Below are positions 51,120 to 64,000 of a stretch of DNA of 64,000 nt, in pieces. Within the stretch, counting starts at the first letter, position 1. Each line of letters begins with the position of its first letter. Origin of the DNA: Faecousia sp. (GTDB lineage Bacteria > Bacillota > Clostridia > Oscillospirales > Oscillospiraceae); NCBI GenBank assembly GCA_045659925.1, contig JAZRCV010000042.1:4137-68136 (forward strand), in the 5' to 3' direction. Position numbers and translations under genes: made by a program. The notes under the pieces were generated by a model. That model saw only the letters and a program-made list of their open reading frames with translations, was not told where the DNA came from and did no database searches.

Positions 51120-51122
51120 GGC

Positions 51123-53189
51123 TTACCTTCTTTCCATACACTCGTTGAGATAGCGGATGACGCTGCTCTGATTCAGGTCAACCTTGCTTCCATCTGAGGT
51201 AATGCGAATATGTAAATATTTGGGATGGAGCTGCAATTCAATCAGCCCCATTTCATGAAATGCATCCAGACATACGCGGGTACGCATCAGAGAACACATG
51301 GTACCGGCGCCGTGGGCAATCTTCCGGCACAGGCACTCCGCATTTTCCACCACAACACCGGCGCTGTGGTTGGAAATGAGATAGCGCCACACCAGAGCAA
51401 ACTCACCCCGGCTGGGAAGCAGCATTCTCGCCTCTTCCGGGGAGATTCTCTGGCGATCCCGGCAGCGGCTATATACCGCGTCCTCCGCCTGATTATTTTC
51501 CCGCTCATTTCGGCAGGGCCGCAGATCAACAACATTGAGCTGCACAGAGCTCATGCCCCGGAACTCATTTACCTGCGGGGTAAAGGCCACATCAATGTAG
51601 TCGCCCTGTGCCACCGCAGCCTGACGGGCCGTGGTGGAGAAGAAGATAGCTGCAATGCTCATACCTTGGTCTGTGCGAAGGCGCAGACGCAGATGCTTGC
51701 CGCCTCCCACCTCGCTGAGCTGCTCCACATACAAATGCTCCATGCAGAATATCGGCCGGGGACAGCCGCAGCCGCAGGGCTCCAGCTGTGCAAGTGAGGC
51801 CACATTATCAAGGGTCAGAAGCTGGGGAGAAATGCTGCAGTCGATTTCCAGTGCAGCCTTTGCCTCGCCGGATTCCACAAACTCCCAGGCAAGGCGGGAA
51901 ACTTCATTTCTAAAATCATCAATTCTATCCCGGCGGATGGTAAAGCCTGCCGCCAGCTCATGGCCGCCATAGCTCTCCAAAAGGCCTGAAAGTGTCGTCA
52001 GACCGGCAAAGAGGTTAAACCCGCCGTAAGAGCGGGAGGACGCCTTGCCTTTGTCTCCATCGAGACAAATCAGGAAAGTGGGGCAGGAATATTCCTCTGC
52101 CATGCGGGAAGCTACAATACCCACCACACCCTGATGCCAGTTTTCTCCCGCAAGCACAATGGCATTGGGCTTTTCGGTGGCATTGAGGCGGGCAACTGCA
52201 TCCTGATAAATTTCAGATTCAATGGCCTGCCGCTGACGATTCAGGCGGCAGAGGGTGGCTGCCTTCTTTGCCGCACATGCCGGATCATTGGTCATAAACA
52301 GCTCTACAGCCACTTCCACCTGACCCATACGCCCTGCTGCATTGATGCGGGGTGCCAGCACATAGCCTACGGTACCTGCCGTCACACTGCCCGGCTCACA
52401 GCCGCATTCTTTCAAAAGCGCTGCAATGCCCGCCCGCTTGGGGTGGGACAGGGCTTCAAGACCTTTGGCGACGAAGGTGCGGTTCTCGCCCCGCAGATTC
52501 ATCACATCCGCAATCACACCAAGGCACACCAGATCGCCATAGCGTTCCAGCATCGCCTCCTGATCTCCTGCAAGGGCAGCCGCCAGCTTGAAGGCCACAC
52601 CAACGCCACAAAGATCCGTGTGGGGATAGGTGCGATCCAAACGATGGGGGTTCACCACCGCGCAGGCATCGGGCAGATCCAGCTTGCATTCATGGTGATC
52701 TGTAATGATCAGATCAATGCCCAATTCCCGGCATAGCTCCGCCTCTGCTGTGGCAGTGATGCCGCAGTCAACTGTAATAATCAGTTTCACCTGCTCCCGG
52801 TGGAGATGGCGCACCGCCATTTCATTGAGGCCGTAGCCCTCTTCCAGGCGGCCGGGGATATAGCTGATGCAATGTGCCCCCTGACTGCGCAGAAAATCCA
52901 CCAGCAAACAGGTCGCAGTGATGCCGTCTACATCATAGTCGCCGTAAACTGCAATTTTTTCCCCTCTGCGAAGGGCCTCACGGACACGGGCTACCGCCCG
53001 GTCCATTTCACGAAGGGCAAAGGGATCACACAAAGGCAGATCGCAGCGCAGGAAATTGCGGGCTGACTCCGCTGTGTTGTAGCCCCTGCTGGACAGCACC
53101 CGGGCTGTCAGAGGTGAAAAACCAGCTCTGCACAGACCCTTTACCGCTTCGGATTCATAAAACGATATATCCCAGATTCCGTACTTCAT
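51123..53189 (-). CDS. recJ: Single-stranded-DNA-specific exonuclease RecJ
   Basis: 688 aa with DHH motifs (VYGDYDVDGITA, ITDHH) and DHHA1 (YGGHELAAG). Confidence 0.95.
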   Translation of the reverse strand: MKYGIWDISFYESEAVKGLCRAGFSPLTARVLSSRGYNTAESARNFLRCDLPLCDPFALREMDRAVARVREALRRGEKIAVYGDYDVDGITATCLLVDFLRSQGAHCISYIPGRLEEGYGLNEMAVRHLHREQVKLIITVDCGITATAEAELCRELGIDLIITDHHECKLDLPDACAVVNPHRLDRTYPHTDLCGVGVAFKLAAALAGDQEAMLERYGDLVCLGVIADVMNLRGENRTFVAKGLEALSHPKRAGIAALLKECGCEPGSVTAGTVGYVLAPRINAAGRMGQVEVAVELFMTNDPACAAKKAATLCRLNRQRQAIESEIYQDAVARLNATEKPNAIVLAGENWHQGVVGIVASRMAEEYSCPTFLICLDGDKGKASSRSYGGFNLFAGLTTLSGLLESYGGHELAAGFTIRRDRIDDFRNEVSRLAWEFVESGEAKAALEIDCSISPQLLTLDNVASLAQLEPCGCGCPRPIFCMEHLYVEQLSEVGGGKHLRLRLRTDQGMSIAAIFFSTTARQAAVAQGDYIDVAFTPQVNEFRGMSSVQLNVVDLRPCRNERENNQAEDAVYSRCRDRQRISPEEARMLLPSRGEFALVWRYLISNHSAGVVVENAECLCRKIAHGAGTMCSLMRTRVCLDAFHEMGLIELQLHPKYLHIRITSDGSKVDLNQSSVIRYLNECMERR

Positions 53190-53222
53190 TCCAAATCCTC
53201 ATCCGAATTTTTATTTTTTAAT

Positions 53223-53251
53223 ATTATAGCAATTTTTGCAGCATTTCTCAA
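53223..53251 (-). promoter_or_regulatory. Sigma-A type promoter for the recJ-relA-... operon
   Basis: On the minus strand: TTGAGA, 17-nt spacer, then TATAAT, about 35 nt upstream of the recJ ATG. Confidence 0.6.
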
Positions 53252-53283
53252 GACGGCCAAGGTGCTTTTTTATATCCAAATTA

Positions 53284-53318
53284 TAAAAAATCGCCTCCGG
53301 ATCTGATCCGAAGGCGAT
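53284..53318 (-). terminator. Rho-independent terminator (minus strand)
   Basis: The minus strand reads atcgccttcggatc aga tccggaggcgat followed by tttttta. Lies downstream of the 118-aa gene. Confidence 0.75.
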
Positions 53319-53347
53319 AAGATTTGTCTTGATTTCAAAGGGAAAAC

Positions 53348-53704
53348 TCATTTCGACTCATGCAGCAGCATCAGCGACAGCGCCATAGATGCCGCAGACG
53401 CAGCCAGCAGTGCTGCACGGCGGTAAAAACCGGTGCGAATGCGCTCTGCCCGGATGCTTCCTCTGCGCTCTTCCTGGGTAACAGGCTGTGCCAGAAGGGC
53501 CATCATCTGCTCGATACGAGCCTCGTCACCGGTCAGTGCAAAGCAGGCCTGGAGCAGGTCTTCGTCATAGTCATAGGTAAATTCAAAGCTGCCAAAGGCA
53601 TCGTCCCCGGCTGCTTTTTCAACGCGTCCCCGCAGCACACGGGCAGAAACGGGATCAGTTTCAACAAAAACCGTTTTCGTGGTCAGAACCGTAATGGGAT
53701 TCAT
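53348..53704 (-). CDS. Hypothetical tail-anchored small protein
   Basis: 118 aa with a soluble acidic N-domain and a single C-terminal hydrophobic helix (AALLAASAASMALSLMLL). I recognised no family. Confidence 0.45.
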   Translation of the reverse strand: MNPITVLTTKTVFVETDPVSARVLRGRVEKAAGDDAFGSFEFTYDYDEDLLQACFALTGDEARIEQMMALLAQPVTQEERRGSIRAERIRTGFYRRAALLAASAASMALSLMLLHESK

Positions 53705-53731
53705 AGGATAACACTCCTTGTCTCTTTGTGT

Positions 53732-54163
53732 TTATTTCTCATTTGCAGTATTACCGGCACATTTTCTCTCACGGAACCGTTGAAAAAGCCACAGCAAAAC
53801 TGCCGCCGCCAGAATTCCGGAAAAATCCACCCAGACATCGCTCACCTGACTGCTTCGTCCCATCACAAACAGCTGGATGGTCTCATCGCAAAGCGCACAC
53901 AGCAGCCCCGCCAGAAGCATCTGCACATTCGGGCCCTTCAAACTTTTCCCAAGAAAGACGCCTAAAATCGCAAATTCCCCAAAATGCGCCAGTTTTCTCA
54001 AAAGATGCTCGGTCAAAAAAGGAAAAATCTGCACCAAAAGGTAGAGCAGCCCTCCGCTTTCCGCCTGACTGACCGGCGCCGGCATGGCCGACTGGGAGAA
54101 AATCAGCAGCAGCCAAAGCCCACAGGCAAGCCGCCAAAGCCACAATGGACAGGTATTTTTCAA
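53732..54163 (-). CDS. VanZ-like family membrane protein
   Basis: LRKLAHFGEFAILGV and CDETIQLFVMGRSSQVSDVWVDFSG match VanZ motifs. A TTG start at 54163 sits behind ggaaggagggg. The ORF-track ATG at 54292 has no RBS. Confidence 0.6.
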   Translation of the reverse strand: MKNTCPLWLWRLACGLWLLLIFSQSAMPAPVSQAESGGLLYLLVQIFPFLTEHLLRKLAHFGEFAILGVFLGKSLKGPNVQMLLAGLLCALCDETIQLFVMGRSSQVSDVWVDFSGILAAAVLLWLFQRFRERKCAGNTANEK

Positions 54164-54445
54164 ATACAGCCCCTCCTTCCGGTCGCCAATCTGCGGCTTC
54201 TTTACTCTATCATGAAACACTGCAAATTTCCACCGTTTTTTCCGGTACCGGAAGAAATCCCTCCCCCGCCCTTCCCACAGCTCGCCATCCATAGATATAG
54301 AGCTTAACAGGATATTTTGGCACAGTTCCCTGCATTTCCCGCACTTTTTCGATGTAAATCAAAAGAAGCTCCGTTTTTCCTTTTCTCTTTTGTCCGTCAT
54401 TTTTCCGCATCACCAAAAGAAATACAGCTTTTTTCTAAAAAATCA

Positions 54446-54474
54446 TTGATTTTACACGCCATTTGGAGTATGAT
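54446..54474 (+). promoter_or_regulatory. Candidate sigma-A promoter for the hydrogenase operon
   Basis: TTGATT, 17-nt spacer, then TATGAT. Leaves a leader of about 120 nt. Confidence 0.35.
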
Positions 54475-54574
54475 AATATCGGTATGGCTTATTCGATAAA
54501 AATCATTCGATATGACCACTTCTGGGCCCGCTTTTCGTCAACTGAAGCCCGCGCAGAACCATACCACCCGATTC

Positions 54575-54594
54575 GTGTGAAAAACTTTTTACAG
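54575..54594 (+). promoter_or_regulatory. Candidate Rex-type operator (imperfect palindrome) abutting the hydC RBS
   Basis: GTGTGAA-AAACTT-TTTACAG compared with the published Rex consensus TTGTGAA-N6-TTCACAA, giving 11 of 14 specified positions. Confidence 0.3.
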
Positions 54595-54599
54595 GAGGA

Positions 54600-55103
54600 A
54601 TGATGAAAAGTATGGCTTGCAAACATGAAACGGTTCCCTTCCGTGGGACAAAGGAGCAGGAAGCTGCCCTGATGGCTGTCATCAACGAGTATAAGGACAC
54701 TCCCGGTGCTCTGATGCCCATCTTGCAGAAAGCACAGGACATTTATGGTTATCTCCCCATTGAGGTTCAGACCATGATCTCCGACGAAACCGGTATCCCC
54801 ATGGAGAAGATCTATGGCGTTGCCACCTTCTACGCTCAGTTCTCTCTGGAGCCCAAGGGCAAGTACCGCATCTCTGTCTGCCTCGGTACCGCTTGCTACG
54901 TCAAGGGCGCTCAGGAAATCTACGACAAGCTCAAGGAGCTGCTGGGTGTTGGTGACGGCGGCTGCACCCCCGACGGCAAGTTCTCTCTGGATGCCTGCCG
55001 CTGCATCGGTGCCTGCGGTCTGGCTCCCGTTATGACGATCAATGACGATGTCTACGGTCGTCTCACCACGGATATGCTTCCGGACATTCTGGCTAAGTAT
55101 TAA
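54600..55103 (+). CDS. hydC: NuoE-like [2Fe-2S] subunit of HydABC-type hydrogenase (HydC)
   Basis: 167 aa with a thioredoxin-like 2Fe-2S motif: VCLGTACYVKG...LDACRCIGACGLAPV. The start is ambiguous between ATG at 54600, 54603 and 54612. Confidence 0.85.
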   Translation: MMKSMACKHETVPFRGTKEQEAALMAVINEYKDTPGALMPILQKAQDIYGYLPIEVQTMISDETGIPMEKIYGVATFYAQFSLEPKGKYRISVCLGTACYVKGAQEIYDKLKELLGVGDGGCTPDGKFSLDACRCIGACGLAPVMTINDDVYGRLTTDMLPDILAKY

Positions 55104-55117
55104 TTTGGTGGCATTTT

Positions 55118-55465
55118 ATGAAGTTTGAACAGATCAGACAGATTCTCAATGCGCAGGTTGTGTGCTGTGAGGAGCATATGGCTACAGAAGCCAGTGCTGC
55201 TGCCTATGCCAGCGATATGATGAGCGATGTGCTGGCCTTCGTTACCGACCAGACCGTTCTGCTGACCGGTCTTGTCAACGAGCAGGTCATCCGCACCGCC
55301 GCCATGCTGGACATGCGCTGCATCATTCTGGTTCGCAGCAAGCAGCCTACTCCCGGCATGATTCAGCTTGCAAAGCAAAATGACATTGCAATCATGACCA
55401 CCGGATTCAATCTCTATGAATCCTGCGGTATGCTTTACAGCAACGGTCTGAAGGAAGGTTGTTGA
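55118..55465 (+). CDS. DRTGG-domain protein (copy 1)
   Basis: 115 aa. ASDMMSDVLAFVTDQTVLLTGLVNEQVIRTAAMLDMRCIILVRSKQP is the DRTGG-type pattern. The canonical DRTGG residues read as LLTGL here. Confidence 0.65.
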   Translation: MKFEQIRQILNAQVVCCEEHMATEASAAAYASDMMSDVLAFVTDQTVLLTGLVNEQVIRTAAMLDMRCIILVRSKQPTPGMIQLAKQNDIAIMTTGFNLYESCGMLYSNGLKEGC

Positions 55466-55469
55466 AGCA

Positions 55470-55892
55470 ATGTCGGATGCGTTGAAGTTTGAGTATAAGA
55501 TCAGCGGCGAAAATTTTGCCTCCGCAGGTGAAGCCACCATGCGGATCAAAAAAGAACTTCGCTCGCTCGGCTTTTCCCCTGCACTGATCCGTCGCGTCTC
55601 CATCGCAATGTATGAAGGCGAGATCAATATGGTCATCCATGCCGGAGGCGGTGTGGCCACCGTGCTGGTCGATCCCCAGTGCGTTGAGATTACATTGGCA
55701 GACCAGGGTCCCGGCATCGCTGACATCAGCCTTGCCATGCAGGAAGGCTACACCACCGCACCCGATGCCATCCGCTCCTTTGGCTTTGGCGCAGGCATGG
55801 GCCTGCCCAACATGAAGAAGTACACCGATGACATGAGGATCGAATCCGAACTGAACAAAGGTACCACCGTATACATGAAAATCAATGCCTGA
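55470..55892 (+). CDS. Small GHKL-superfamily ATPase resembling anti-sigma Ser/Thr kinases (RsbW/SpoIIAB-like)
   Basis: 140 aa with N-box EGEINMVIHA, G1 DQGPGI and G2 GFGAGMGLPN. There is no HisKA/dimerisation domain. Confidence 0.7.
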   Translation: MSDALKFEYKISGENFASAGEATMRIKKELRSLGFSPALIRRVSIAMYEGEINMVIHAGGGVATVLVDPQCVEITLADQGPGIADISLAMQEGYTTAPDAIRSFGFGAGMGLPNMKKYTDDMRIESELNKGTTVYMKINA

Positions 55893-55930
55893 TCACGCTC
55901 TTGTGGCGTTTTTGGGCCGAATGAGGACAT

Positions 55931-57229
55931 ATGGCAAAATACAATCACTCGGTTTTACTGGATTTCAGCAAATGCAAGGGCTGCACCCACTGTCTAAAAC
56001 GCTGTCCTACCGAAGCGATCCGTATCCGCAACGGTCATGCGCAGATTTCTGCGACCAGTTGTATCGACTGCGGCGAGTGCATCCGCCTTTGCCCCTACAA
56101 TGCGAAAACGGCCATCTGCGATAAGCTGGAGGCCATCGAGTCCTTCCGCTACAAAATTGCCCTGCCGCCCCCCAGCCTCTACGGTCAGTTTGACCATCTG
56201 GACGATATCGACTATCTGCTCCAGGGTCTGCGTGATTATGGCTTTGACGAGGTATTTGAGGTAGCACAGGCTGCGGAGATCGTATCCGGCTATACCCGCA
56301 GATATCTGCGCCGTCCCGATGTCATAAAGCCTGCCATCAGCTCCGCGTGTCCTGCGATCTCGCATCTGATTGAGCAGCGCTTCCCCAATCTGATTGATAA
56401 TGTCATTCCGCTGCTGCCCCCTGTGGATGTGGCGGCGAGAATGGCCCGCGAAAAGGCGCTGGCTGAGCATCCTGAGCTCAAAAGCGAGGACATTGGCATC
56501 TGCTTCATTTCGCCTTGCCCCGCCAAAGTCAGCTACCTGAAAAACGAAATTGCAAAAGGCCGGTCCAATGTGGACTGCGTCGTTTCCATGGGAGATATGT
56601 ATTTCTCCCTAGTCAATATCATGAGCCGTGCCATTGAGCCTGAGGTAAATTCTCAGACCGGCATCATCGGCGTCAGCTGGGCTTCCAGCGGCGGCGAAGC
56701 CAGTGCACTGTTCAACGACCGCTATCTGGCAGCGGACGGCATCGAAAATGTCATCCGTGTGCTGGAAAACATTGATAACGGCTCCTTCCCGGAGCTGGAA
56801 TTCATCGAGCTCAATGCCTGCAGCGGTGGCTGTGTCGGCGGCGTACTGACGGTGGAAAATGCGTTCATCGCCAAGGCCCGTCTGCAAACCGTCCGCCACT
56901 ATCTACCCGTATCCCGCAACTGGAATGTCGCCGGTGATGCCAAATCGGATATTTCCATTCCGGACACTCTGTTTATGAGTGAGCCTCTGGAATATACCCC
57001 CCACGGCAGTCTGGCCGACAATATGATGGAAGCTTTCCGCAAGCGCGCCAAAATTCAGGAAATCGTCGATCGGCTTCCTGCACTGGATTGCGGTTCCTGC
57101 GGCTCTCCCACCTGCCTCGCCTTTGCAATGGACATTGTCAACGGCAACGCCACGGAGGATGAATGCATCGTAAAGATGCGGGATAGAATGCATGAGCTTT
57201 TGGGAGGATCTGACCATGACAGTCCGTGA
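55931..57229 (+). CDS. HydS-like (putative sensory) [FeFe]-hydrogenase paralogue lacking the proton-relay cysteine
   Basis: Two N-terminal 4Fe-4S motifs (CKGCTHCLKRCP, CIDCGECIRLCP). H-domain motifs are L1 SSACPAI, L2 SPCPAKVSY and L3 ELNACSGGCVGG. An extra C-terminal motif CGSCGSPTC...C is present. I saw no PAS domain. Confidence 0.75.
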   Translation: MAKYNHSVLLDFSKCKGCTHCLKRCPTEAIRIRNGHAQISATSCIDCGECIRLCPYNAKTAICDKLEAIESFRYKIALPPPSLYGQFDHLDDIDYLLQGLRDYGFDEVFEVAQAAEIVSGYTRRYLRRPDVIKPAISSACPAISHLIEQRFPNLIDNVIPLLPPVDVAARMAREKALAEHPELKSEDIGICFISPCPAKVSYLKNEIAKGRSNVDCVVSMGDMYFSLVNIMSRAIEPEVNSQTGIIGVSWASSGGEASALFNDRYLAADGIENVIRVLENIDNGSFPELEFIELNACSGGCVGGVLTVENAFIAKARLQTVRHYLPVSRNWNVAGDAKSDISIPDTLFMSEPLEYTPHGSLADNMMEAFRKRAKIQEIVDRLPALDCGSCGSPTCLAFAMDIVNGNATEDECIVKMRDRMHELLGGSDHDSP

Positions 57230-57542
57230 ACTTTGTGACGCCGCCGGCTTTGCCCCTCTGGCACTGCCGGATCCTGACCGTGAAATTGAAGGCTGCTATG
57301 TGGGCGACCTTCTGAGCTGGGTCATGGGCAATGCGTCCTATGGCTGCGCCTGGGTCACGATCATGACCAACCGTAATATCATCGCCGTAGCTACCCTCAT
57401 CGATATGGCCTGCATCCTTCTGGCAGAAGGCTGCACCCTGCCGGAGGATCTGACAGAGCTGGCAATGAGCCAGAATGTCAATGTGCTCACCAGCGCAAAG
57501 CCCGCGTATGAAACCTGCGCGGCACTGGCGGGGCTGCTATGA
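57216..57542 (+). CDS. DRTGG-domain protein (copy 2)
   Basis: 108 aa. VGDLLSWVMGNASYGCAWVTIMTNRNIIAVATLIDMACILLAEG parallels copy 1. ATG at 57216 sits behind gggagga and overlaps the upstream gene by 14 nt. Confidence 0.6.
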   Translation: MTVRELCDAAGFAPLALPDPDREIEGCYVGDLLSWVMGNASYGCAWVTIMTNRNIIAVATLIDMACILLAEGCTLPEDLTELAMSQNVNVLTSAKPAYETCAALAGLL

Positions 57543-58267
57543 GGCGCGTCTACTGCGACTTCCACATCCACTCGTGTCTGTCCCCCTGCGGTGACGACAG
57601 CATGACCCCGGCTCTGGCCGCCGGTCTTTTGAAGCTGTCGGGCTACGATGTGGCAGCCCTCACCGACCACAACGCCACAGGCAACTGCCCGGCCTTCTTC
57701 CGCGCCTGCGAAAGCTATGGCCTGACGCCTCTGGCCGGAATGGAGCTGACCACGGCGGAAGACATCCATCTGGTATGTCTGCTGAGAACCTGCGAGGAGG
57801 CTGAAGCCTTCGGGCAGGCAGTGCAGCAGCATCGGATGCTGATCCGCAATCGTCCCCAGTTTTTTGGACGGCAGCTTCTGATGGATGCGGAGGACAATAT
57901 TCTGGGTGAAGAACCGAATCTGCTTCCCAATGCCACGGATCTGTCCCTGGAGGATGCCTACGCATTGGCCACCGATTTTGGTGCCATCTGCTATCCCGCC
58001 CATGTGGACCGGGAAAGCAACGGCATTTTGGCCATCCTCGGTGATATGCCGGAATTGCCCTCCTTTTCCCACGCGGAATTCCGCGAACCGGAAAACCGGG
58101 ACAACTACTGCATCCACTATCCCCGCCTGAAGGGTCTGCGTCCCCTCTTTGGTTCCGACGCTCATCGACCCGACGCCATCTGCGATGCACAGTTCTCCAT
58201 TGAGATCGCGCAGACCGGCGATGTGGCGGCGGCAGTCATGGAAGCATTGCAAGGAGGAAGCCGATGA
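57539..58267 (+). CDS. PHP-family metal-dependent phosphoesterase
   Basis: 242 aa. CDFHIHSCLSPCGDD...LTDHNA...AGMELTT...PAHVD are PHP His/Asp metal ligands. ATGA overlap with the upstream gene. Confidence 0.75.
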   Translation: MRRVYCDFHIHSCLSPCGDDSMTPALAAGLLKLSGYDVAALTDHNATGNCPAFFRACESYGLTPLAGMELTTAEDIHLVCLLRTCEEAEAFGQAVQQHRMLIRNRPQFFGRQLLMDAEDNILGEEPNLLPNATDLSLEDAYALATDFGAICYPAHVDRESNGILAILGDMPELPSFSHAEFREPENRDNYCIHYPRLKGLRPLFGSDAHRPDAICDAQFSIEIAQTGDVAAAVMEALQGGSR

Positions 58268-58812
58268 AAGAGCTGTCACTCAACATTTTGGACATCGCCA
58301 TGAATTCCGTCAAAGCCGGTGCCAATCATCTTGGCATTGAACTGAACGAGACGGAAGAGCCTCTGCTCACCATTATCATTCGTGATGATGGCTGCGGTAT
58401 GAGTGAGGAATTTGTCCGGCGTCTGTCGGATCCCTTCTGCACCACCCGCACCACACGAAAGGTGGGTCTGGGCGTTCCCTTCTACCTGCTGGCAGCAGAG
58501 CAGACGGGCGGCGGCGTCACCATTGAATCCACCCCCGAGCCCGATCCCAATCACGGTACCACGGTAACTGCCGTGTTCCGCAAGGATCACATCGATTTTA
58601 CGCCCCTGGGCGATATCATCTCCACCATCACTACCCTGATCCACGGCTACCCGGACATTGCGCTGGAGTTTTCCCACCGCTTCCCTACCCACGCGGTAGA
58701 ATTGTCCACAGTTGAGATCAAGGCGATGCTTGGGGACATTCCCATCAACACTCTGGAAATCCTCAACTGGATCAGGGACTTTCTGGAAGAACAATACGAT
58801 CACCAATCATAG
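58264..58812 (+). CDS. GHKL-superfamily ATPase (HATPase_c-like, copy 2)
   Basis: 182 aa with an N-box-like LNILDIAMNSVKAGA, G1 RDDGCGM and G2 VGLGVPF. ATGA overlap with the PHP gene. Confidence 0.65.
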   Translation: MKELSLNILDIAMNSVKAGANHLGIELNETEEPLLTIIIRDDGCGMSEEFVRRLSDPFCTTRTTRKVGLGVPFYLLAAEQTGGGVTIESTPEPDPNHGTTVTAVFRKDHIDFTPLGDIISTITTLIHGYPDIALEFSHRFPTHAVELSTVEIKAMLGDIPINTLEILNWIRDFLEEQYDHQS

Positions 58813-58828
58813 AAGGAAGGATAACATC

Positions 58829-59197
58829 ATGAAAACACTCGAAGAACTTGCTCAGCTCAGAGAGCAAATGAAGGCGAAGATGGCAATCCGCACCACCGAA
58901 GGCAAGCTCCGTGTAGTAGTCGGCATGGCTACCTGCGGCATTGCTGCCGGCGCAAGACCCGTCCTCAACACCCTTGCCGACGAAGTCAGCAAGGAAGGCC
59001 TGACGGAAAAGGTTTCCGTTTCCCAGACCGGCTGCATTGGCATCTGCCAGTTTGAGCCCGTCATCGAAGTCTTTGACGGCGACTCCAAGGTCACCTATGT
59101 CAAGATGACCCCCGACAAGGCAAAGCGCATCGTTGCCGAGCACCTCAAGGGTGGCAAGGTTGTTCAGGAATACACCATCGGCAATTCTAATGTTTAA
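58829..59197 (+). CDS. Thioredoxin-like [2Fe-2S] ferredoxin
   Basis: 122 aa. VVGMATCGIAAG...QTGCIGICQFEP has four Cys in the NuoE/HydC-like spacing. Confidence 0.75.
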   Translation: MKTLEELAQLREQMKAKMAIRTTEGKLRVVVGMATCGIAAGARPVLNTLADEVSKEGLTEKVSVSQTGCIGICQFEPVIEVFDGDSKVTYVKMTPDKAKRIVAEHLKGGKVVQEYTIGNSNV

Positions 59198-59217
59198 TCA
59201 CGGAGGAGCAGTATAGT

Positions 59218-61005
59218 ATGATTCGTTCTCATGTTATGATTTGTGCCGGTACCGGTTGTACCGCATCCGGCAGTGCTACTCTGCAGGCTTCCCTGCAGAA
59301 AGAGCTGGAAGCAAAGGGTCTGCAGGAAGAAGTCCGCATCGTCCCGACCGGCTGCTTCGGCCTTTGTGCCCTTGGCCCCATCATGATCATCTACCCCGAA
59401 GGCGTGTTCTATGCCAACGTTGAGGCATCTGATATTCCCGAAATCGTGGAAGAGCACCTGCTGAAGGGCCGTATCGTTCAGCGCCTCGTCCATACCGATG
59501 AGACCACCAAGGAACTCGTCACCAACCTGGCTGACACCAGCTTCTACAAGATCCAGCAGCGTGTTGCTCTGCGTAACTGCGGCGAAATCGACCCCGAAAA
59601 CATCGACGAATACATTGCCAAGGACGGCTATGCAGCCCTTGCCAAGGTTCTGACCCAGATGTCTCCTGAAGATGTCATCCAGACCCTGCTTGACTCCGGT
59701 CTTCGCGGCCGCGGCGGCGCAGGCTTCCCCACCGGCCTGAAGTGGAAGTTTGCCAGAGGCTATCAGGATGATCAGAAGTACGTCTGCTGCAACGCTGACG
59801 AAGGCGACCCCGGTGCATTCATGGACCGCTCCATCCTGGAAGGCGACCCCCATGCACTTCTCGAAGCTATGACCATCGCCGGTTACACCATCGGCGCAAA
59901 TCAGGGCTACATCTACGTTCGTGCTGAATATCCCATCGCTGTTCAGCGTCTGGACATCGCCATCAAGCAGTCCAGAGAATACGGCCTGCTGGGCGACAAC
60001 ATCCTCGGCACCGGCTTCAAGTTCAACATCGACCTGCGTCTGGGCGCTGGCGCATTCGTCTGCGGCGAAGAAACTGCTCTGATGACCTCCATCGAAGGCA
60101 ACCGCGGCGAACCCCGTCCCCGTCCTCCCTTCCCCGCTGAAAAGGGTCTGTACAACAAGCCCTCCATCCTGAACAACGTAGAAACCTACGCCAACATCCC
60201 CCAGATCATCCTCAAGGGCGCTGACTGGTTCGCCTCCATGGGCACCGAACAGTCCAAGGGCACCAAGGTCTTCGCTCTGGGCGGCAAGATCGAGCACACC
60301 GGCCTGGTGGAAGTCCCCATGGGCACCACCCTGCGCCAGATCGTTGAAGAAGTTGGCGGCGGCATCCCCAACGGCAAGAAGTTCAAGGCTGCTCAGACCG
60401 GCGGTCCTTCCGGCGGCTGCATCCCCATTGAACACTTCGACGTTCCCGTTGGCTACGAACACCTGGCAGAGCTGGGCTCCATCGTTGGTTCCGGCGGTCT
60501 GATCGTCATGGACGAAGACAACTGCATGGTCGACATCGCTAAGTTCTTCCTCGAATTCACCGTTGATGAATCCTGCGGTAAGTGCACTCCCTGCCGTATC
60601 GGCACCCGCCGTATGCTGGAGCTGCTCGACAAGATCACCGAGGGCAACGGCACCATGGAAGATCTGGAAAAGCTCGAAGAGCTGTGCTACTATGTCAAGG
60701 AAAACTCCCTGTGCGGTCTGGGCCAGACGGCTCCCAACCCCGTTGTTTCCACCCTCCGCTTCTTCCGCGATGAGTACATTGCCCATATCGTTGACAAGCG
60801 CTGCCCCGCTGGCGTCTGCAAGAGCCTGATGCAGTATGTCATCGATGCCGACAAGTGCAAGGGCTGCTCCCTCTGCGCAAGAAAGTGCCCCGTTGGCGCA
60901 ATCTCCGGTTCCGTCAAGAATCCCCATGTGATCGATCCTGTCAAGTGCATCAAGTGCGGCGCCTGCGAAGCAGCCTGCAAGTTCGATGCAATCAGCAAGA
61001 AGTAA
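59218..61005 (+). CDS. hydB: NuoF-like NAD(P)H/FMN-binding subunit of HydABC-type hydrogenase (HydB)
   Basis: 595 aa with an N-terminal 2Fe-2S (CAGTGC...GCFGLC), an FMN site GRGGAGFPTGLKW, a nucleotide site CNADEGDPGAF, the N3-type cluster ESCGKCTPCR, and two C-terminal 4Fe-4S motifs. Confidence 0.9.
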   Translation: MIRSHVMICAGTGCTASGSATLQASLQKELEAKGLQEEVRIVPTGCFGLCALGPIMIIYPEGVFYANVEASDIPEIVEEHLLKGRIVQRLVHTDETTKELVTNLADTSFYKIQQRVALRNCGEIDPENIDEYIAKDGYAALAKVLTQMSPEDVIQTLLDSGLRGRGGAGFPTGLKWKFARGYQDDQKYVCCNADEGDPGAFMDRSILEGDPHALLEAMTIAGYTIGANQGYIYVRAEYPIAVQRLDIAIKQSREYGLLGDNILGTGFKFNIDLRLGAGAFVCGEETALMTSIEGNRGEPRPRPPFPAEKGLYNKPSILNNVETYANIPQIILKGADWFASMGTEQSKGTKVFALGGKIEHTGLVEVPMGTTLRQIVEEVGGGIPNGKKFKAAQTGGPSGGCIPIEHFDVPVGYEHLAELGSIVGSGGLIVMDEDNCMVDIAKFFLEFTVDESCGKCTPCRIGTRRMLELLDKITEGNGTMEDLEKLEELCYYVKENSLCGLGQTAPNPVVSTLRFFRDEYIAHIVDKRCPAGVCKSLMQYVIDADKCKGCSLCARKCPVGAISGSVKNPHVIDPVKCIKCGACEAACKFDAISKK

Positions 61006-61018
61006 GGAGGAACAGAGC

Positions 61019-62773
61019 ATGGATATTACGATCAAAATCAATGGTTTCGAAGTGACCGCTCCCCGTGGCACTACGATCCTTCAGGCCGCAAGAATGGCCC
61101 ACATCGACATCCCCACCCTTTGCTACATGAAGGAAATCAATGCAATCGGCGCCTGCCGTCTGTGCGTTGTTGAAGCAAAGGAAGGCCCCCGTCCGGCAAA
61201 GCTGGTCGCCGCCTGTGTATACCCCATCTCCAACGGCATGGAAGTCGTTACCAACAGCCCCAAGGTCATCGAAGCAAGAAAGACCAACCTTGAGCTTCTC
61301 CTCTCCAACCACAATCGCTCCTGCCTGAGCTGCGTGCGCAGCGGCAGATGCGAACTGCAGACCCTCTGCCGTGAATACGGTGTCACCGAGGAAGGCAGAT
61401 ACGACGGCGTCAAGACTCCCAGCGAAATCGACGAGTCCGCCACCCATATGATCCGCGACAACTCCAAGTGCATCCTCTGCCGCCGCTGCGTGGCAGTTTG
61501 CGAGAAGAATCAGGCTGTCGGCGTCATCGGCGCCAACGAGCGTGGCTTCAAGACCAACATCGGCAGCGCCTTTGAAATGGGTCTGGGCGAAACCAGCTGC
61601 GTGGCCTGCGGCCAGTGCATCAACGTCTGCCCCACCGGCGCTCTGCATGAAAAGGAATCCATTGACGACGTTCTCGCCGCCATTGCCGATCCCACCAAGT
61701 ATGTCGTGGTTCAGACTGCTCCCGCTGTCCGTGCTGCTCTGGGCGAATGCTTCGGCCTGCCCATCGGCACCAACGTAGAAGGCAAGATGGTCGCTGCTCT
61801 GCGCCGTCTCGGCTTCGACCGCGTCTTCGATACCGACTTCTCCGCTGACCTCACCATCATGGAAGAAGCCAACGAGTTCATCGAACGCGTACAGAATGGC
61901 GGCAAGCTGCCCCTCATCACCTCCTGCAGCCCCGGCTGGATCAAGTACTGCGAACACTACTTCCCCGAAATGGTCGAGAACCTGTCCTCCTGCAAGTCTC
62001 CCCAGCAGATGCTCGGCGCTGTCATCAAGACCTACTTCGCAGAGACCATGGGCATTGATCCCAAGAACATCGTTTCTGTTTCCGTCATGCCCTGCACCGC
62101 TAAGAAGTTCGAGATCGGCCGCGACAATCAGAACGCTGCCGGTGTTGCCGACGTGGACTTTGCTCTCTCCACCCGTGAACTCGGCCGCATGATCGAGAAG
62201 GTCGGCATCCGCTTCCTGGATCTGCCCGATGAAGAGTACGACTCTCCCCTGGGTGAAGACACCGGCGCAGCTGTCATCTTCGGCGCCACCGGCGGTGTTA
62301 TGGAAGCTGCTCTGCGTACTGCAGTGGAAACCCTCACCGGCACCGAGCTGGAAAGCGTTGACTTCCACGAAGTCCGCGGCCTGGCTGGCATCAAGGAAGC
62401 TACCTACAACGTCAACGGCATGGACGTCAACGTTGCTGTCGCTTCCGGCCTGAAGAATGCTCATGACCTGCTCATGCGTGTCCAGAACGGCGAAGCCAAC
62501 TATCACTTCATCGAGATCATGGGTTGCCCCGGCGGCTGCATCAACGGCGGCGGCCAGCCCCAGCAGCCTGCTTCCGTCCGCAACTTTGTGGATGTTCCCG
62601 CTCTGCGCGCCAAGGTTCTGTACGATCAGGATGCAGCAATGCCCCTGCGTAAGTCCCACGCAAATCCCTCTATCCAGAAGCTGTACGCTGAGTACTTCGA
62701 GAAACCCGGCAGCCACAAGGCTCACGAGTATCTCCACACCACTTACGTCAAGCGTACCATCAACCACAACTAA
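61019..62773 (+). CDS. hydA: [FeFe]-hydrogenase catalytic subunit HydA (M3 architecture) with non-canonical L1 motif
   Basis: 584 aa with an N-terminal 2Fe-2S (CYMKEINAIGACRLC), a His-ligated cluster and two 4Fe-4S motifs. L1 is TSCSPGW, L2 is MPCTAKKFE and L3 is EIMGCPGGCINGGGQP. ATG at 61019 sits behind aaggagg. Confidence 0.9.
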   Translation: MDITIKINGFEVTAPRGTTILQAARMAHIDIPTLCYMKEINAIGACRLCVVEAKEGPRPAKLVAACVYPISNGMEVVTNSPKVIEARKTNLELLLSNHNRSCLSCVRSGRCELQTLCREYGVTEEGRYDGVKTPSEIDESATHMIRDNSKCILCRRCVAVCEKNQAVGVIGANERGFKTNIGSAFEMGLGETSCVACGQCINVCPTGALHEKESIDDVLAAIADPTKYVVVQTAPAVRAALGECFGLPIGTNVEGKMVAALRRLGFDRVFDTDFSADLTIMEEANEFIERVQNGGKLPLITSCSPGWIKYCEHYFPEMVENLSSCKSPQQMLGAVIKTYFAETMGIDPKNIVSVSVMPCTAKKFEIGRDNQNAAGVADVDFALSTRELGRMIEKVGIRFLDLPDEEYDSPLGEDTGAAVIFGATGGVMEAALRTAVETLTGTELESVDFHEVRGLAGIKEATYNVNGMDVNVAVASGLKNAHDLLMRVQNGEANYHFIEIMGCPGGCINGGGQPQQPASVRNFVDVPALRAKVLYDQDAAMPLRKSHANPSIQKLYAEYFEKPGSHKAHEYLHTTYVKRTINHN

Positions 62774-62785
62774 TCATTGCAACAA

Positions 62786-62818
62786 CCGCCCCTGCTCCGG
62801 CAGGGGCGGGTCTGTATT
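62786..62818 (+). terminator. Terminator hairpin after hydA
   Basis: 10-bp GC-rich stem ccgcccctgc / gcaggggcgg with a tetraloop and a weak U-tail. Confidence 0.55.
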
Positions 62819-62824
62819 GAACAA

Positions 62825-62858
62825 CGCAAAAACAGGCAGCGCTTGAGCGCTGCCTGTT
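62825..62858 (-). terminator. Rho-independent terminator of groEL (minus strand)
   Basis: 12-bp stem aacaggcagcgc / gcgctgcctgtt. The minus strand continues with tttttgcg. Confidence 0.8.
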
Positions 62859-62878
62859 GCTATTTGATTGGGTATCGA

Positions 62879-64000
62879 TTAATACATGCCGCCCATGCCG
62901 CCGCCTGCGCTGGCTGCTGCCAGAGCTGCTTCTGCTGCGGGATCGGGCTTGTCGGTCACGAGGGATTCGGTGGTGAGGACGCAGGATGCGATAGAAGCTG
63001 CGTTCTCCAGAGCGCTGCGGGTCACCTTGGTGGGATCCACGATGCCGTTGGCGATCATTTCCACATATTCCTCGGTGTAGGCGTAGAAGCCGTAGCCGGG
63101 CTTGCCGCTGTAGCGGATCTTCTCGAAGATCACAGAGCCGTCAACACCGGCATTCTCCGCAATCTGGCGGATGGGTGCCTGCAGTGCCTTGGCAATGATC
63201 TGAGCGCCGGTCTTCTCGTCACCCTTCAGGGTGTCCACCAGAGCCTCTACAGCGGGGATGGCGTTGACATAAGCAGTGCCGCCGCCTGCTACGATGCCTT
63301 CTTCAACGGCTGCCTTGGTGGCGTTGAGGGCGTCCTCGATGCGGAGCTTCTGTTCCTTCATGGCAACTTCAGTCTGAGCGCCGACGCGGATGACAGCTAC
63401 GCCGCCTGCCAGCTTGGCAAGACGCTCCTGCAGCTTTTCACGGTCGTAATCGGAAGTGGTGATCTCGATGGCAGTCTTGATCTCCAGGGTACGGGCTGCA
63501 ATGGCATCTTCACTGCCTGCGCCGTCCACGATGGTGGTGTTGTCCTTGCCGATCTTGATCTTATGGGCACGGCCCAGATCGCTGAGCTGAGCTTCCTTGA
63601 GATCCATGTTCAGATCGCTGGAAATCACAGTGCCGCCGGTGAGGATGGCGATATCCTGCAGCATTTCCTTTCTGCGGTCGCCATAGCCGGGAGCCTTAAC
63701 AGCAACGCAGGTGAAGGTACCGCGCAGACGGTTGACAAGGATGGTAGCCAGAGCGTCGCCCTCTACATCCTCTGCGATGATGACCATCTTCTGGCCCATC
63801 TTCACGATCTGCTCCAGAATGGGCAGAATGTCCTGAATGCTGGAAATCTTCTTATCGGTGAACAGGATGAAAGGATCGTCGATGACTGCTTCCATCTTGT
63901 CGGTATCGGTGATCATATAGGGGGAGATATAGCCGCGATCAAACTGCATACCCTCAACTACATCCAGAGAGGTCTCGCCGGTCTTGGATTCTTCAATGGT
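62879..64000 (-). CDS. groL: Chaperonin GroEL, C-terminal ~370 aa (5' end beyond the window)
   Basis: [23 protein letters not shown] and the C-terminal GGMGGMY tail. The frame stays open to the window edge. Confidence 0.95.

Follow-up and report, generated by a model that had tools for sequence, protein, structure and literature searches.

Genes for group D (M2e) [FeFe]-hydrogenases, together with one for a "histidine kinase", had already been placed upstream of those for bifurcating HydABC enzymes in 2012-2013, in papers giving credit to Calusinska 2010, and again in a 2020 paper. Published tables (PMC3561251, PMC3608648) list a group D gene with a neighboring 'histidine/serine kinase', both upstream of A1-type HydABC, in Caldicellulosiruptor, C. 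thermocellum, Caldanaerobacter, C. phytofermentans and Thermoanaerobacter, and the same arrangement was noted for the group D enzyme TamHydS (PMC8163306). In Clostridia, the accessory module usually sits just upstream of the HydABC operon. TamHydS is catalytically competent, though slow, and is adjoined by an AraC-type regulator (Land 2020); a 2026 study of the same protein found that H2 does not reduce its C-terminal cluster and that catalysis is hardly affected by this cluster. HydE of A. woodii was found outside the purified enzyme, and its proposed role is 'assembly or signalling' (PMC3315566). The first-pass annotation called the cassette studied here uncharacterized; given these published clusters it is not a new find, although the literature has paid little attention to its DRTGG and PHP genes. 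What is added here are natural protein fusions, a minimal gene triad, contexts beside NuoEF-formate dehydrogenase and Rnf, the kinship of the PHP protein, and the finding that the second GHKL ATPase lacks a DHp domain and carries an extra domain.

The window is a 64,000-nucleotide stretch of a Faecousia sp. contig, and all positions refer to it. It contains a widely conserved gene set around a sensor-like hydrogenase copy, inside the NADH/ferredoxin-coupled hydrogenase operon of a gut Clostridia-type bacterium. Inspection of the open reading frames from 54600 to 62773 on the plus strand shows a single ten-gene unit in the order hydC, DRTGG-1, GHKL-1, HydS-like, DRTGG-2, PHP, GHKL-2, HydD-like, hydB, hydA, with all ten frames at the coordinates, on the strand and with the tiny gaps and overlaps first described for them. 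Together with the accessory module, the genes of an electron-bifurcating HydABC(D) [FeFe]-hydrogenase of the A. woodii type form one operon here. The structural genes are hydC (54600-55103), for a NuoE-type thioredoxin-like [2Fe-2S] subunit (PF01257, 176 bits, with NuoE and HoxE models also matching); hydB (59218-61005), for a NuoF-type FMN/NADH subunit (Complex1_51K, NADH_4Fe-4S and two Fer4 domains; TIGR01959, 493 bits); and hydA (61019-62773), for the catalytic hydrogenase of the A. woodii HydA1 type (NF040763, 900 bits against a cutoff of 765; 724 bits against HydA1 of 7Q4V). The small gene before hydB (58829-59197) was initially called a 2Fe-2S ferredoxin. Its product has only three invariant Cys, and is instead a thioredoxin-fold protein (PF01257, 31.3 bits) which matches A. 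woodii HydD and is closest to the domain at the N-terminus of HoxF- and HydB-type subunits (8OH5_B, E 2e-20).

The sensor-like copy is a group D (M2e) HydS-like paralogue (55931-57229; two Fer4 domains, Fe_hyd_lg_C and PF04060) from a family of more than 8000 clusters at 90% identity. It shares the M2e architecture and all the sensory-type features of group D with TamHydS (Land 2020). The H-cluster ligands C140, C196, C297 and C301 are invariant, and eight N-terminal Cys would hold two [4Fe-4S] clusters. As the first reading had it, the relay Cys is missing: it is replaced by A139 (ISSACP, against TSCSPGW in the window's HydA). K199 is retained, Ser194 takes the position of M353 in CpI (CpI numbering from Land 2020), and a Cx2Cx4Cx16C motif is present at the C-terminus (C387, C390, C395, C412). 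No PAS domain was found in the protein.

The domain assignments of the other cassette proteins were borne out by profile searches, in one case through profile-profile comparison. DRTGG-1 (55118-55465) is a single-domain DRTGG protein (PF07085, 34.1 bits, cutoff 25.2), always directly 5' of GHKL-1 in the relatives surveyed; across 76 sequences, S36, D37, T50, G51, N54, R59, T60, R73 and K75 are among its residues with at least 95% conservation. DRTGG-2 (57216-57542) is a divergent paralogue which scores 21.0 bits, under the Pfam cutoff, and was matched to the DRTGG-1 family with hhalign (probability 99.2%, E 1.8e-19); its invariant residues are Y28, G30, D31, S34, W46 and T48, with N52 and N54 almost as strictly kept. 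DRTGG domains are not known to be phospho-acceptors, and CBS domains are present in some DRTGG homologues.

GHKL-1 (55470-55892; HATPase_c_2 and HATPase_c) is a SpoIIAB/RsbW-type protein, a putative Ser/Thr kinase or binding partner, whose best PDB relative is SpoIIAB (1TH8, E 4e-12). It was rejected as a SpoIIAB orthologue, scoring 57.7 bits against the cutoff of 135 for TIGR01925. At least 95% of sequences retain its N-box (E49, N53), G1 (D78xGxG82) and G2 (G105-G111) motifs. The order DRTGG-1, GHKL-1, HydS parallels that of spoIIAA-spoIIAB-sigF, which is antagonist, kinase, target.

The PHP gene (57539-58267) encodes a metal-dependent phosphoesterase (PF02811, 35.5 bits; AlphaFold2 model pLDDT 95) with invariant metal-ligand motifs H9xH11, D43-H44, E69, H77, H155 and D207xH209. 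Its nearest relatives in sequence and structure are EndoQ, TrpH/RNase AM, pAp-phosphatase-like enzymes and Pol III PHP domains, with the AMP-bound 2YB1 and 3E0F also among the nearest structures; there is no known PHP protein phosphatase among them, and its casting as the phosphatase of a partner switch was therefore an assumption. GHKL-2 (58264-58812; HATPase_c, 45 bits) corresponds to A. woodii HydE (PMC3315566). It consists of a histidine-kinase-type CA domain, matching that of KinB over residues 9-101, and a C-terminal alpha/beta domain of about 75 amino acids; N14, D41xG43xG45 and G68xG70 are invariant. The earlier call of a second GHKL ATPase holds for the domain. It fares less well for a kinase role: DHp domain and His site are absent from the protein, and the best whole-chain Foldseek matches of its model (pLDDT 87) are the N-terminal regions of MutL, PMS2 and TopoVI-B. 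Since the ATP-binding motifs of the GHKL proteins and the metal ligands of PHP are at least 95% conserved, both GHKLs and PHP are predicted to be active proteins rather than relics.

Gene order around the HydS-like cassette was surveyed in the 80 closest species genomes. All ten genes occur in the same order in 42 of them; another 31 are cut by contig ends only, yet are consistent with that order; in five, hydC is relocated after PHP; and two are exceptions. The cassette order is thus kept in 78 of 80, and the tight co-conservation with hydABC which a neighbourhood survey had been proposed to check is observed; the ten-gene order is far beyond chance. The five relatives with hydC after PHP have the order of the published C. 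thermocellum and Thermoanaerobacter genomes, judged by locus tags. The cassette does lie inside hydABC in this window, as first described, and this merely reflects hydC standing first. Under both orders GHKL-2 is fixed in place before the small protein, hydB and hydA. All six cassette genes stand as annotated; they are better read as a five-gene HydS module and a HydE-like ATPase which belongs with HydD.

Natural fusions (HydS~DRTGG, DRTGG~HydS and GHKL-1~HydS) recur on many independent contigs, DRTGG-2 is fused to the HydS C-terminus in several lineages, and one homologue is a CBS~GHKL-1 fusion. The recurrence of these fusions shows that HydS is functionally linked with GHKL-1 and the DRTGG proteins. 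DRTGG, GHKL and HydS also form a minimal triad which stands alone, next to CheW and GGDEF genes and away from redox complexes. When complete with GHKL-2 and the HydD-like gene, the cassette adjoins three kinds of ferredoxin/NAD(H) machine: HydABC, NuoEF-formate dehydrogenase and Rnf.

Based on these observations, we tentatively favor, while falling short of confidence in it, a three-layer H2-responsive regulatory device which resembles a partner switch and has its output at the protein level on the neighboring complex. In the sensor core, composed of DRTGG-1, GHKL-1 and the relay-less HydS, HydS would bind or slowly oxidize H2 at its H-cluster and, touching GHKL-1 and the DRTGG proteins directly, pass on to them the resulting redox or conformational state. 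GHKL-1, through binding or phosphorylation that depends on ATP, would toggle which partner is engaged (DRTGG-1, DRTGG-2 or HydS). DRTGG-2 and PHP would form a reset or modifier pair, in which PHP reverses the mark made by GHKL-1. GHKL-2 and HydD, a pair always encoded beside a NuoF-type subunit, would lie closest to the effector, a ferredoxin/NAD(H)-coupled complex, here HydABC. Direct post-translational control of HydABC, as first proposed, is a possibility; the cassette also occurs with NuoEF-formate dehydrogenase, with Rnf or as the free triad. The behavior of the TamHydS C-terminal cluster weakens the simplest relay idea. The original suggestion of partner switching is plausible and has partial support, from the SpoIIAB-like GHKL-1, the fusions, the co-conservation and the absence, confirmed by profile searches, of any HisKA, receiver, STAS, PP2C or DNA-binding domain from the operon. 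Counting against it, the nearest relatives of PHP act on nucleotides or nucleic acids rather than phosphoproteins, and the modeled chain of GHKL-2 resembles MutL-type ATPases.

The same sensor may instead have a transcriptional output, which is unlikely but a serious contender. GHKL-1 would then act as an anti-sigma-type kinase, or the cassette as a whole would signal to an unlinked regulator such as a sigma factor or an AraC- or Rex-type protein, and hydABC and fermentation genes would be expressed under the control of H2, along the lines suggested for group C HydS/HfsB systems. SpoIIAB-type proteins, the closest to GHKL-1, classically target sigma factors, and the host, which has sporulation genes (spoVB among them), probably has several. 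Expression of adhE and hydrogenase has been linked to group C HydS in R. albus and to HfsB in T. saccharolyticum. The AraC-family neighbor of TamHydS, together with the Rex-like boxes that 13 of 64 relatives (0.8 expected) carry upstream of the operon, indicates that transcriptional control also exists around such operons. Against this, the window has no Rex box, the operon has neither a sigma factor gene nor a DNA-binding domain, and no flanking regulator or other neighbor is conserved in the 80 relatives. GHKL-1, besides falling far below the orthologue cutoff, is fused to HydS and not to a sigma factor.

Two other readings move the cassette away from H2 signaling. One, which seems clearly improbable, is that the cassette uses ATP to assemble, repair or activate bifurcating complexes of the NuoEF type: HydS would supply H2-derived low-potential electrons, the GHKL ATPases would be clamps or chaperones, and a nucleotide or cofactor, such as a flavin- or nucleotide-linked intermediate, would be handled by PHP and the DRTGG proteins. 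The varied catalytic partners do share NuoE/NuoF-type or Rnf flavin/Fe-S modules, the whole-chain fold of GHKL-2 is like clamps of the MutL, TopoVI-B and Hsp90 class, and the nucleotide-directed relatives of PHP, the suggested assembly role of HydE and the catalytic competence of TamHydS, slow as it is, would all fit. However, HydABC of A. woodii and of T. maritima is active with no group D cassette adjoining, the triad occurs away from redox complexes, and GHKL-1 clearly belongs with the regulatory SpoIIAB proteins. The other, which we consider highly improbable, is that the cassette serves mainly to integrate metabolite levels or energy charge: adenine nucleotides or NADH would be ligands of the DRTGG proteins, PHP would hydrolyze a small nucleotide signal, and the contribution of HydS would be a redox input and no more. 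In family II pyrophosphatases, DRTGG domains occur alongside nucleotide-binding CBS pairs (weak matches), and the CBS~GHKL-1 homologue and the kinship of PHP with 2YB1 and RNase AM point the same way; yet the cassette encodes no nucleotide cyclase or synthase, and the fusions join DRTGG proteins to HydS and not to a metabolic enzyme. Chance juxtaposition, or insertion of an unrelated mobile cassette, either one functionally unconnected with the hydrogenase, could draw on the shifting position of hydC and on two genomes (L028, L086) with HydS and no hydABC, but it is effectively refuted by the 80-genome survey; no mobility genes were found at the cassette, its flanks are not conserved, and its junctions are tight.

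These junctions begin with gaps of 14 nt (hydC/DRTGG-1), 4 nt (DRTGG-1/GHKL-1) and 38 nt (GHKL-1/HydS). The HydS 3' end then overlaps the DRTGG-2 start (57216/57229; the start at 57216, MTVxEL, is the one conserved in relatives), and ATGA overlaps follow at DRTGG-2/PHP (57539/57542) and PHP/GHKL-2 (58264/58267). These overlaps of stop with start codons make translational coupling likely enough to suggest it. No convincing terminator lies inside the operon: the sole plus-strand hairpin there, at 57608-57624 in the PHP gene, has 5 pairs and matches no better than chance. A candidate sigma-70-like promoter for the ten genes, two overlapping hexamer pairs which match the consensus, lies at 54446-54479 on the plus strand, about 120 nt 5' of the hydC ATG. 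The leader between them (54480-54599) matches nothing in Rfam and is predicted to form a long-range stem (MFE -33.9 kcal/mol, z = -2.8) whose halves are kept in the closest relative. Downstream of hydA, a plus-strand hairpin resembling an intrinsic terminator (62786-62809; 10-bp stem, nine G-C pairs) closes the operon.

Ten plus-strand ORFs run from 54600 to 62773. The first is the hydrogenase gene hydC (54600-55103), which is followed by DRTGG-1 (55118-55465), the GHKL-type ATPase GHKL-1 (55470-55892), a hydrogenase paralogue referred to as HydS-like (55931-57229), DRTGG-2 (57216-57542), a PHP-domain protein (57539-58267) and a second GHKL ATPase, GHKL-2 (58264-58812). A small thioredoxin-fold protein (58829-59197), hydB (59218-61005) and hydA (61019-62773) complete the series. 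Intergenic gaps are 4-38 nt and three gene pairs overlap, two of them through ATGA. This layout and the domain names had been put forward by the first-pass annotation, and the ORF coordinates and the Pfam and NCBIfam searches agree with them, with DRTGG-2 as the only domain below threshold. No convincing terminator was found in the operon interior, where the sole plus-strand hairpin (57608-57624) is a weak 5-pair match. A promoter-like site is found 5' of hydC (54446-54479) and a strong hairpin 3' of hydA (62786-62809). The 5' leader (54480-54602, about 120 nt) is predicted to form a long-range stem, CGGUAUGG...CCAUACC, around two hairpins, with an MFE of -33.9 kcal/mol and z = -2.8. Both halves of the stem are retained, with changes, in L001, the closest relative. 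An Rfam scan of 53000-64000, leader included, gave zero matches at E <= 1.

The conservation of this order was evaluated in the best 80 loci from one scan of species-representative genomes, in which the HydS homologue is 55-86% identical. Nearly all are titled Oscillospiraceae, Acutalibacteraceae or unclassified Clostridia MAGs, and the top match is a Faecousia sp. The ten window proteins were mapped onto these loci to read the gene order. Of the 80 loci, 42 have the complete set of ten in the same order as the window, another 31 are consistent with that order but end at a contig edge, and in five hydC has moved to between PHP and GHKL-2. Two loci are exceptions, one of which (L028, 57-1382) has a HydS orthologue of 58% identity with unrelated genes downstream, and neither the downstream cassette nor hydABC. 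Within 4 kb of the cluster in the 80 loci, no flanking regulator, sigma factor, maturase or other gene was common to more than six, and none of the window ORFs scanned encodes the maturases hydE, hydF or hydG. Since the order is kept and no other family is conserved within 4 kb, the cassette is co-conserved with hydABC, as the first-pass annotation had proposed to check by a neighborhood survey, and the unit is self-contained. A chance juxtaposition of the cassette and the hydrogenase genes is effectively excluded.

The operon has NuoE-, NuoF- and HydA-type subunits, and genes resembling hydD and hydE lie between hydC and hydB. On sequence grounds it is an A. woodii-type HydABCD(E) operon and is predicted to encode a bifurcating enzyme. 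For the window's HydA the nearest match is A. woodii HydA1 (7Q4V, 724 bits). In H-cluster motif L1, HydA (61019-62773, residues ~301-307) and 50 of 50 relatives carry TSCSPGW where the textbook motif is TSCCPGW, and an extra Cys about 20 residues past L1, in (S/T)CKSP (residues ~321-326), is also present in all of them. A. woodii HydA1 shows the same pattern, so the combination is a clade trait.

The A. woodii operon consists of five genes, hydA1 to hydE, with hydC first (Poehlein et al. 2012, PMC3315566). In its order, hydC-hydE-hydD-hydB-hydA1, the HydE and HydD positions correspond to those of GHKL-2 and the small protein in the window. From these positions and the HydA match, GHKL-2 is the counterpart of HydE and the small protein the counterpart of HydD. 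HydE resembles the domains with which histidine kinases bind ATP, is missing from the enzyme and may play a role in "assembly or signalling" (PMC3315566). HydS, DRTGG and PHP genes are lacking in the A. woodii operon as it has been described, whereas in the window this HydS module (DRTGG-1, GHKL-1, HydS-like, DRTGG-2 and PHP) separates hydC from the hydE-like gene. The small protein (58829-59197) had been labeled a 2Fe-2S ferredoxin. It has only three invariant Cys, its nearest match is the thioredoxin-like domain at the N-terminus of HoxF/HydB-type subunits (8OH5_B, E 2e-20), and it is better described as a HydD-like thioredoxin-fold protein. It may lack a canonical cluster, as has been said of A. 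woodii HydD.

The HydS-like protein was expected to be a hydrogenase paralogue with four H-cluster Cys and no relay Cys, and this was borne out. Throughout the alignment C140, C196, C297 and C301 do not vary, and they line up with motifs L1-L3 of the window's HydA, while the relay position (C299 in CpI) is an invariant Ala139, in ISSACP versus TSCSPGW in HydA. The position of CpI M353 is an invariant Ser194 (FISPCPAK), in agreement with the description of TamHydS, the characterized protein from Thermoanaerobacter mathranii, and Lys199 is kept. The N-terminus has eight Cys for two [4Fe-4S] clusters (two Fer4 domains), and the C-terminus has a Cx2Cx4Cx16C motif (PF04060, residues 382-413) with C387, C390, C395 and C412 invariant. 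Pfam gave no PAS match. At 90% identity this very large family comprises over 8000 clusters. Judged by its motifs, the architecture is exactly that of M2e (group D) as described for TamHydS, which shares the two N-terminal clusters, the replaced relay Cys, the Ser, the C-terminal motif and the lack of PAS, and which is also encoded with a histidine-kinase-like ATPase beside a bifurcating HydABC (Land et al. 2020, PMC8163306). The two differ in that hydC precedes the cassette in the window, which places the cassette within the operon; in that the M497 equivalent is Asn295 here but was reported as Leu in TamHydS; and in that TamHydS adjoins an AraC gene, whereas no AraC-type gene was found among the operon domains or in the flanks of up to 4 kb in the 80 loci.

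Two other kinds of hydrogenase sensor are useful for comparison. The group C (M2f) proteins HydS/HfsB, from T. maritima, R. albus (Zheng et al. 2014, as described in PMC5707799) and the hfsABCD operon of T. saccharolyticum, are also relay-less sensory-type hydrogenases with a C-terminal [4Fe-4S] cluster. They are encoded with Ser/Thr kinase- or phosphatase-type genes, HfsC being homologous to serine phosphatases (PMC11837493), and genetics indicates a regulatory role. Group C proteins, however, have a PAS domain that the window's protein lacks, and the window has DRTGG proteins and a PHP protein rather than a PP2C-type phosphatase. The [NiFe] system HoxBC-HoxJ-HoxA of Cupriavidus necator shares the concept of a kinase-bound, low-activity hydrogenase paralogue that reports H2, but its metalloenzyme family is unrelated, and HoxJ, a genuine histidine kinase of PAS-HisKA type, is paired with a response regulator, whereas the operon here has neither HisKA nor receiver.

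The first-pass annotation called the cassette uncharacterized, but this type of cluster is already published. In Caldicellulosiruptor, C. thermocellum (Cthe_0335 / Cthe_0340-0342), Caldanaerobacter (TTE0887 / TTE0892-0894), C. phytofermentans and Thermoanaerobacter, Carere et al. 2012 (PMC3561251) recorded group D M2e "sensory" hydrogenases at a constant spacing of five genes upstream of bifurcating enzymes of the A1 TR(M3) type, and Verbeke et al. 2013 found the same arrangement across all Thermoanaerobacter strains (PMC3608648). Cthe_0339, within Cthe_0338-0342, is annotated as a histidine kinase. The five genes of the HydS module in the window are those of the published "upstream" module, and the hydC-first order is the sole difference. 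The cluster is thus a gene-order variant of a published type which occurs in thousands of Clostridia, tractable models included; as another example the window adds little and will not surprise a specialist. The DRTGG and PHP genes are scarcely touched on in the literature searched, which yielded no relevant paper on DRTGG or PHP genes in a hydrogenase context, or on a sensory hydrogenase with an anti-sigma factor, a PHP domain or partner-switching. Group D gene context does not come up in the Morra 2022 review, and as late as 2024 the group was described as "functionally undefined" (PMC11216029). A 2026 study found that the C-terminal cluster of TamHydS is not reduced by H2, which weakens the idea that this cluster relays the signal (PMC13104023).

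The small proteins around HydS were compared with known families. DRTGG-1 matches PF07085 at 34.1 bits, above the cutoff of 25.2, and DRTGG-2 scores 21.0 bits, below it. Profile-profile alignment with hhalign places DRTGG-2 with the DRTGG-1 family (probability 99.2%, E 1.8e-19), which shows it to be a paralogue at the level of sequence profiles. In the PDB, DRTGG-1 has weak DRTGG matches alone, 2IOJ and 3L2B. GHKL-1 is closest to SpoIIAB (1TH8, E 4e-12), and its ATP-site residues, N-box E49/N53, G1 D78xGxG and G2 G105-G111, are present in at least 95% of sequences. It scores 57.7 bits against TIGR01925, whose cutoff is 135, and so is of SpoIIAB type but not an orthologue.

The arrangement recalls SpoIIAA-SpoIIAB-sigmaF and RsbV-RsbW-sigmaB, which also have a SpoIIAB-homologous GHKL Ser-kinase-type protein with intact ATP motifs, a small alpha/beta protein directly upstream of it and a putative binding target next. 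In contrast to the spoIIA and rsb modules, no STAS, PP2C or sigma gene was found in the operon or in the conserved flanks of the 80 loci, and DRTGG, PHP and HydS occupy those positions. The cassette may work like a partner switch, yet it is not a member of the PP2C-STAS-GHKL family.

An exhaustive search of 50%-identity representatives for longer HydS homologues, with fusions identified by Pfam, found proteins in which these genes are joined. HydS is followed by DRTGG in P0138, P0152, P0234 and P0218, DRTGG precedes HydS in P0153 and P0215, and P0156 is a GHKL (HATPase_c_2)-HydS fusion. One locus (L084) has the order 116 aa, GHKL-1, fused HydS-DRTGG, 220 aa, GHKL-2, 123 aa. Gene-calling artefacts were ruled out as the source of the fusions, as there are several full-length members per type, on independent contigs, including one isolate genome, and in the expected neighborhoods. 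As Rosetta-stone evidence, the fusions indicate that the DRTGG proteins and GHKL-1 are physical working partners of HydS.

The PHP protein and GHKL-2 also have well-conserved sites, though their relatives do not match the roles first given to them. In PHP, the metal-ligand motifs H9xH11, D43-H44, E69, H77, H155 and D207xH209 are invariant, and the AF2 model (pLDDT 95) is a (beta/alpha)7 barrel that matches PHP-superfamily structures. A single-sequence PDB search gave zero matches, and relatives emerged only by profile search; the nearest by profile and fold are EndoQ, TrpH/RNase AM, the AMP-bound 2YB1, 3E0F and Pol III PHP domains. Neither the profile-PDB matches nor the Foldseek matches at E <= 1e-3 named a CpsB/YwqE-type or other protein phosphatase, so the closest homologues give no backing to the phosphatase label. 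In GHKL-2, residues N14, D41xG43xG45 and G68xG70 are conserved at 95% or more, many of them invariant. The AF2 model (pLDDT 87) has a histidine-kinase-type CA domain, as in KinB, without DHp, followed by an alpha/beta domain of about 75 aa at the C-terminus. The best whole-chain Foldseek matches are the N-terminal regions of MutL, PMS2 and TopoVI-B (E 2e-6 to 1e-4, TM 0.45-0.6), and by sequence GHKL-2 is nearer to histidine-kinase CA domains (KinB, Pfam HATPase_c) than to MutL-type proteins. Its designation as a kinase is likewise not backed by its closest homologues, and a true histidine kinase was rejected because there is no DHp/HisKA domain. Pfam and NCBIfam found no HisKA in either GHKL protein and no receiver in the operon, and the earlier observation that the operon lacks HisKA, receiver and STAS holds. 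Judged by this conservation, the catalytic residues of GHKL-1, GHKL-2 and PHP are under selection.

More distant relatives carry the cassette in other settings. A bare unit of CheW, DRTGG, GHKL and HydS lies near GGDEF genes (L086, 6676-9261), and together with L028 this means the HydS core is separable from the hydrogenase operon. The full cassette lies between NuoE and NuoF in L089 (451-10730), followed by a molybdopterin/GltD (formate-dehydrogenase-like) protein and no HydA, and the DRTGG-GHKL-HydS triad lies behind a NuoE-NuoF-FdhA-like operon in L091 (463-10323). In L093 (7718-16764) the full cassette adjoins rnfCDGEA and GHKL-1 is fused to an N-terminal CBS domain, and in L095 the cassette is ahead of NuoE-NuoF-HydA with divergent formate-dehydrogenase genes. 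The genomic partners of the cassette are all ferredoxin/NAD(H)-coupled redox machines, and these contexts show the system to be modular. Along with the fusions, they mark GHKL-1 and the DRTGG proteins out as candidate direct contacts of HydS, and NuoEF- or Rnf-type redox complexes as likely targets.

By analogy with TamHydS and TmHydS, group D HydS would be the sensor of H2, touching the SpoIIAB-like GHKL-1 and both DRTGG paralogues directly. Partner change would be driven by ATP-dependent binding or phosphorylation, with the DRTGG proteins, which may themselves be phosphorylated, in the place of STAS and HydS in the place of the sigma factor of spoIIAA-spoIIAB-sigF. PHP, perhaps acting on protein phosphate, would reset the state, and the HydE-like ATPase and HydD would link the module to the NuoF-type module of the adjoining complex, so that the output would be at the protein level. 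A conserved accessory regulatory module centered on HydS is proposed with much higher confidence than this whole picture of an H2-responsive module, which we hold tentatively, as slightly more apt to be wrong than right. The sensor-plus-kinase idea of the first-pass annotation fits, and its PHP-phosphatase and GHKL-2-kinase labels are the part that homologues do not back; "kinase/phosphatase partner switch" and "post-translational control of HydABC" are to be read as hypotheses.

How the signal would leave the module can be read in several ways. In its boldest form the picture is of a non-canonical partner switch that gates flavin-based electron-bifurcating and Fd:NAD(H) complexes (HydABC, NuoEF-FDH, Rnf) at the protein level when H2 is present, with the DRTGG proteins as functional analogues of STAS antagonists, GHKL-1 holding HydS in place of its usual sigma factor, PHP as the reset phosphatase and the HydE-like ATPase taking part; this fullest version is unlikely. 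The output could also run through a sigma factor or transcription factor encoded elsewhere in the genome, a reading that we hold clearly less likely than the main picture and that would fit the homology of GHKL-1 to SpoIIAB, the AraC gene adjoining TamHydS and the group C precedents. It would also fit the Rex-like boxes (TTGTTAAnnnnTTAACAA or TTGTGAAnnnnTTCACAA, <=2 mismatches) that 13 of 64 relatives (L003, L007, L010, L017, L018, L022, L024, L026, L038, L039, L059, L074 and L076) carry no more than 350 nt upstream of the operon, versus 0.8 expected from shuffles. However, no such regulator gene lies in or near the 80 clusters, and a search upstream of hydC in the window, using two forms of the consensus and tolerating as many as 3 mismatches, found no Rex operator. 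An ATP-dependent assembly or reactivation system, which seems quite improbable, could instead be suggested by the resemblance of GHKL-2 to MutL, by a PHP of nucleotide type and by the diversity of partner enzymes. Still less probable is a metabolite-integrating device, a reading suggested by the CBS fusion in L093 and by the association of DRTGG with CBS.

In Clostridia of the gut, the rumen and biofuel production, the balance of fermentation is steered by H2 partial pressure. The proposed HydS-centered module, once worked out, would explain how bifurcating hydrogenases are tuned, and the same cluster is present in the genetically tractable C. thermocellum and Thermoanaerobacter. To our knowledge TamHydS is the sole characterized member of group D, and we know of no signalling partner for it; the cluster bears on the real question of how group D hydrogenases signal, which the fusions and contexts sharpen.

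The flanks of the operon (48924-53189 and 62879-63949) are ordinary chromosome. The upstream flank has RelA/SpoT-type and RecJ-type ORFs on the minus strand, assigned by reading translations alone, and the downstream flank has a GroEL-like fragment, also on the minus strand. Farther upstream in the window are uvrA, RNase J, a spoVB-like gene (under the NCBIfam cutoff) and hemZ.
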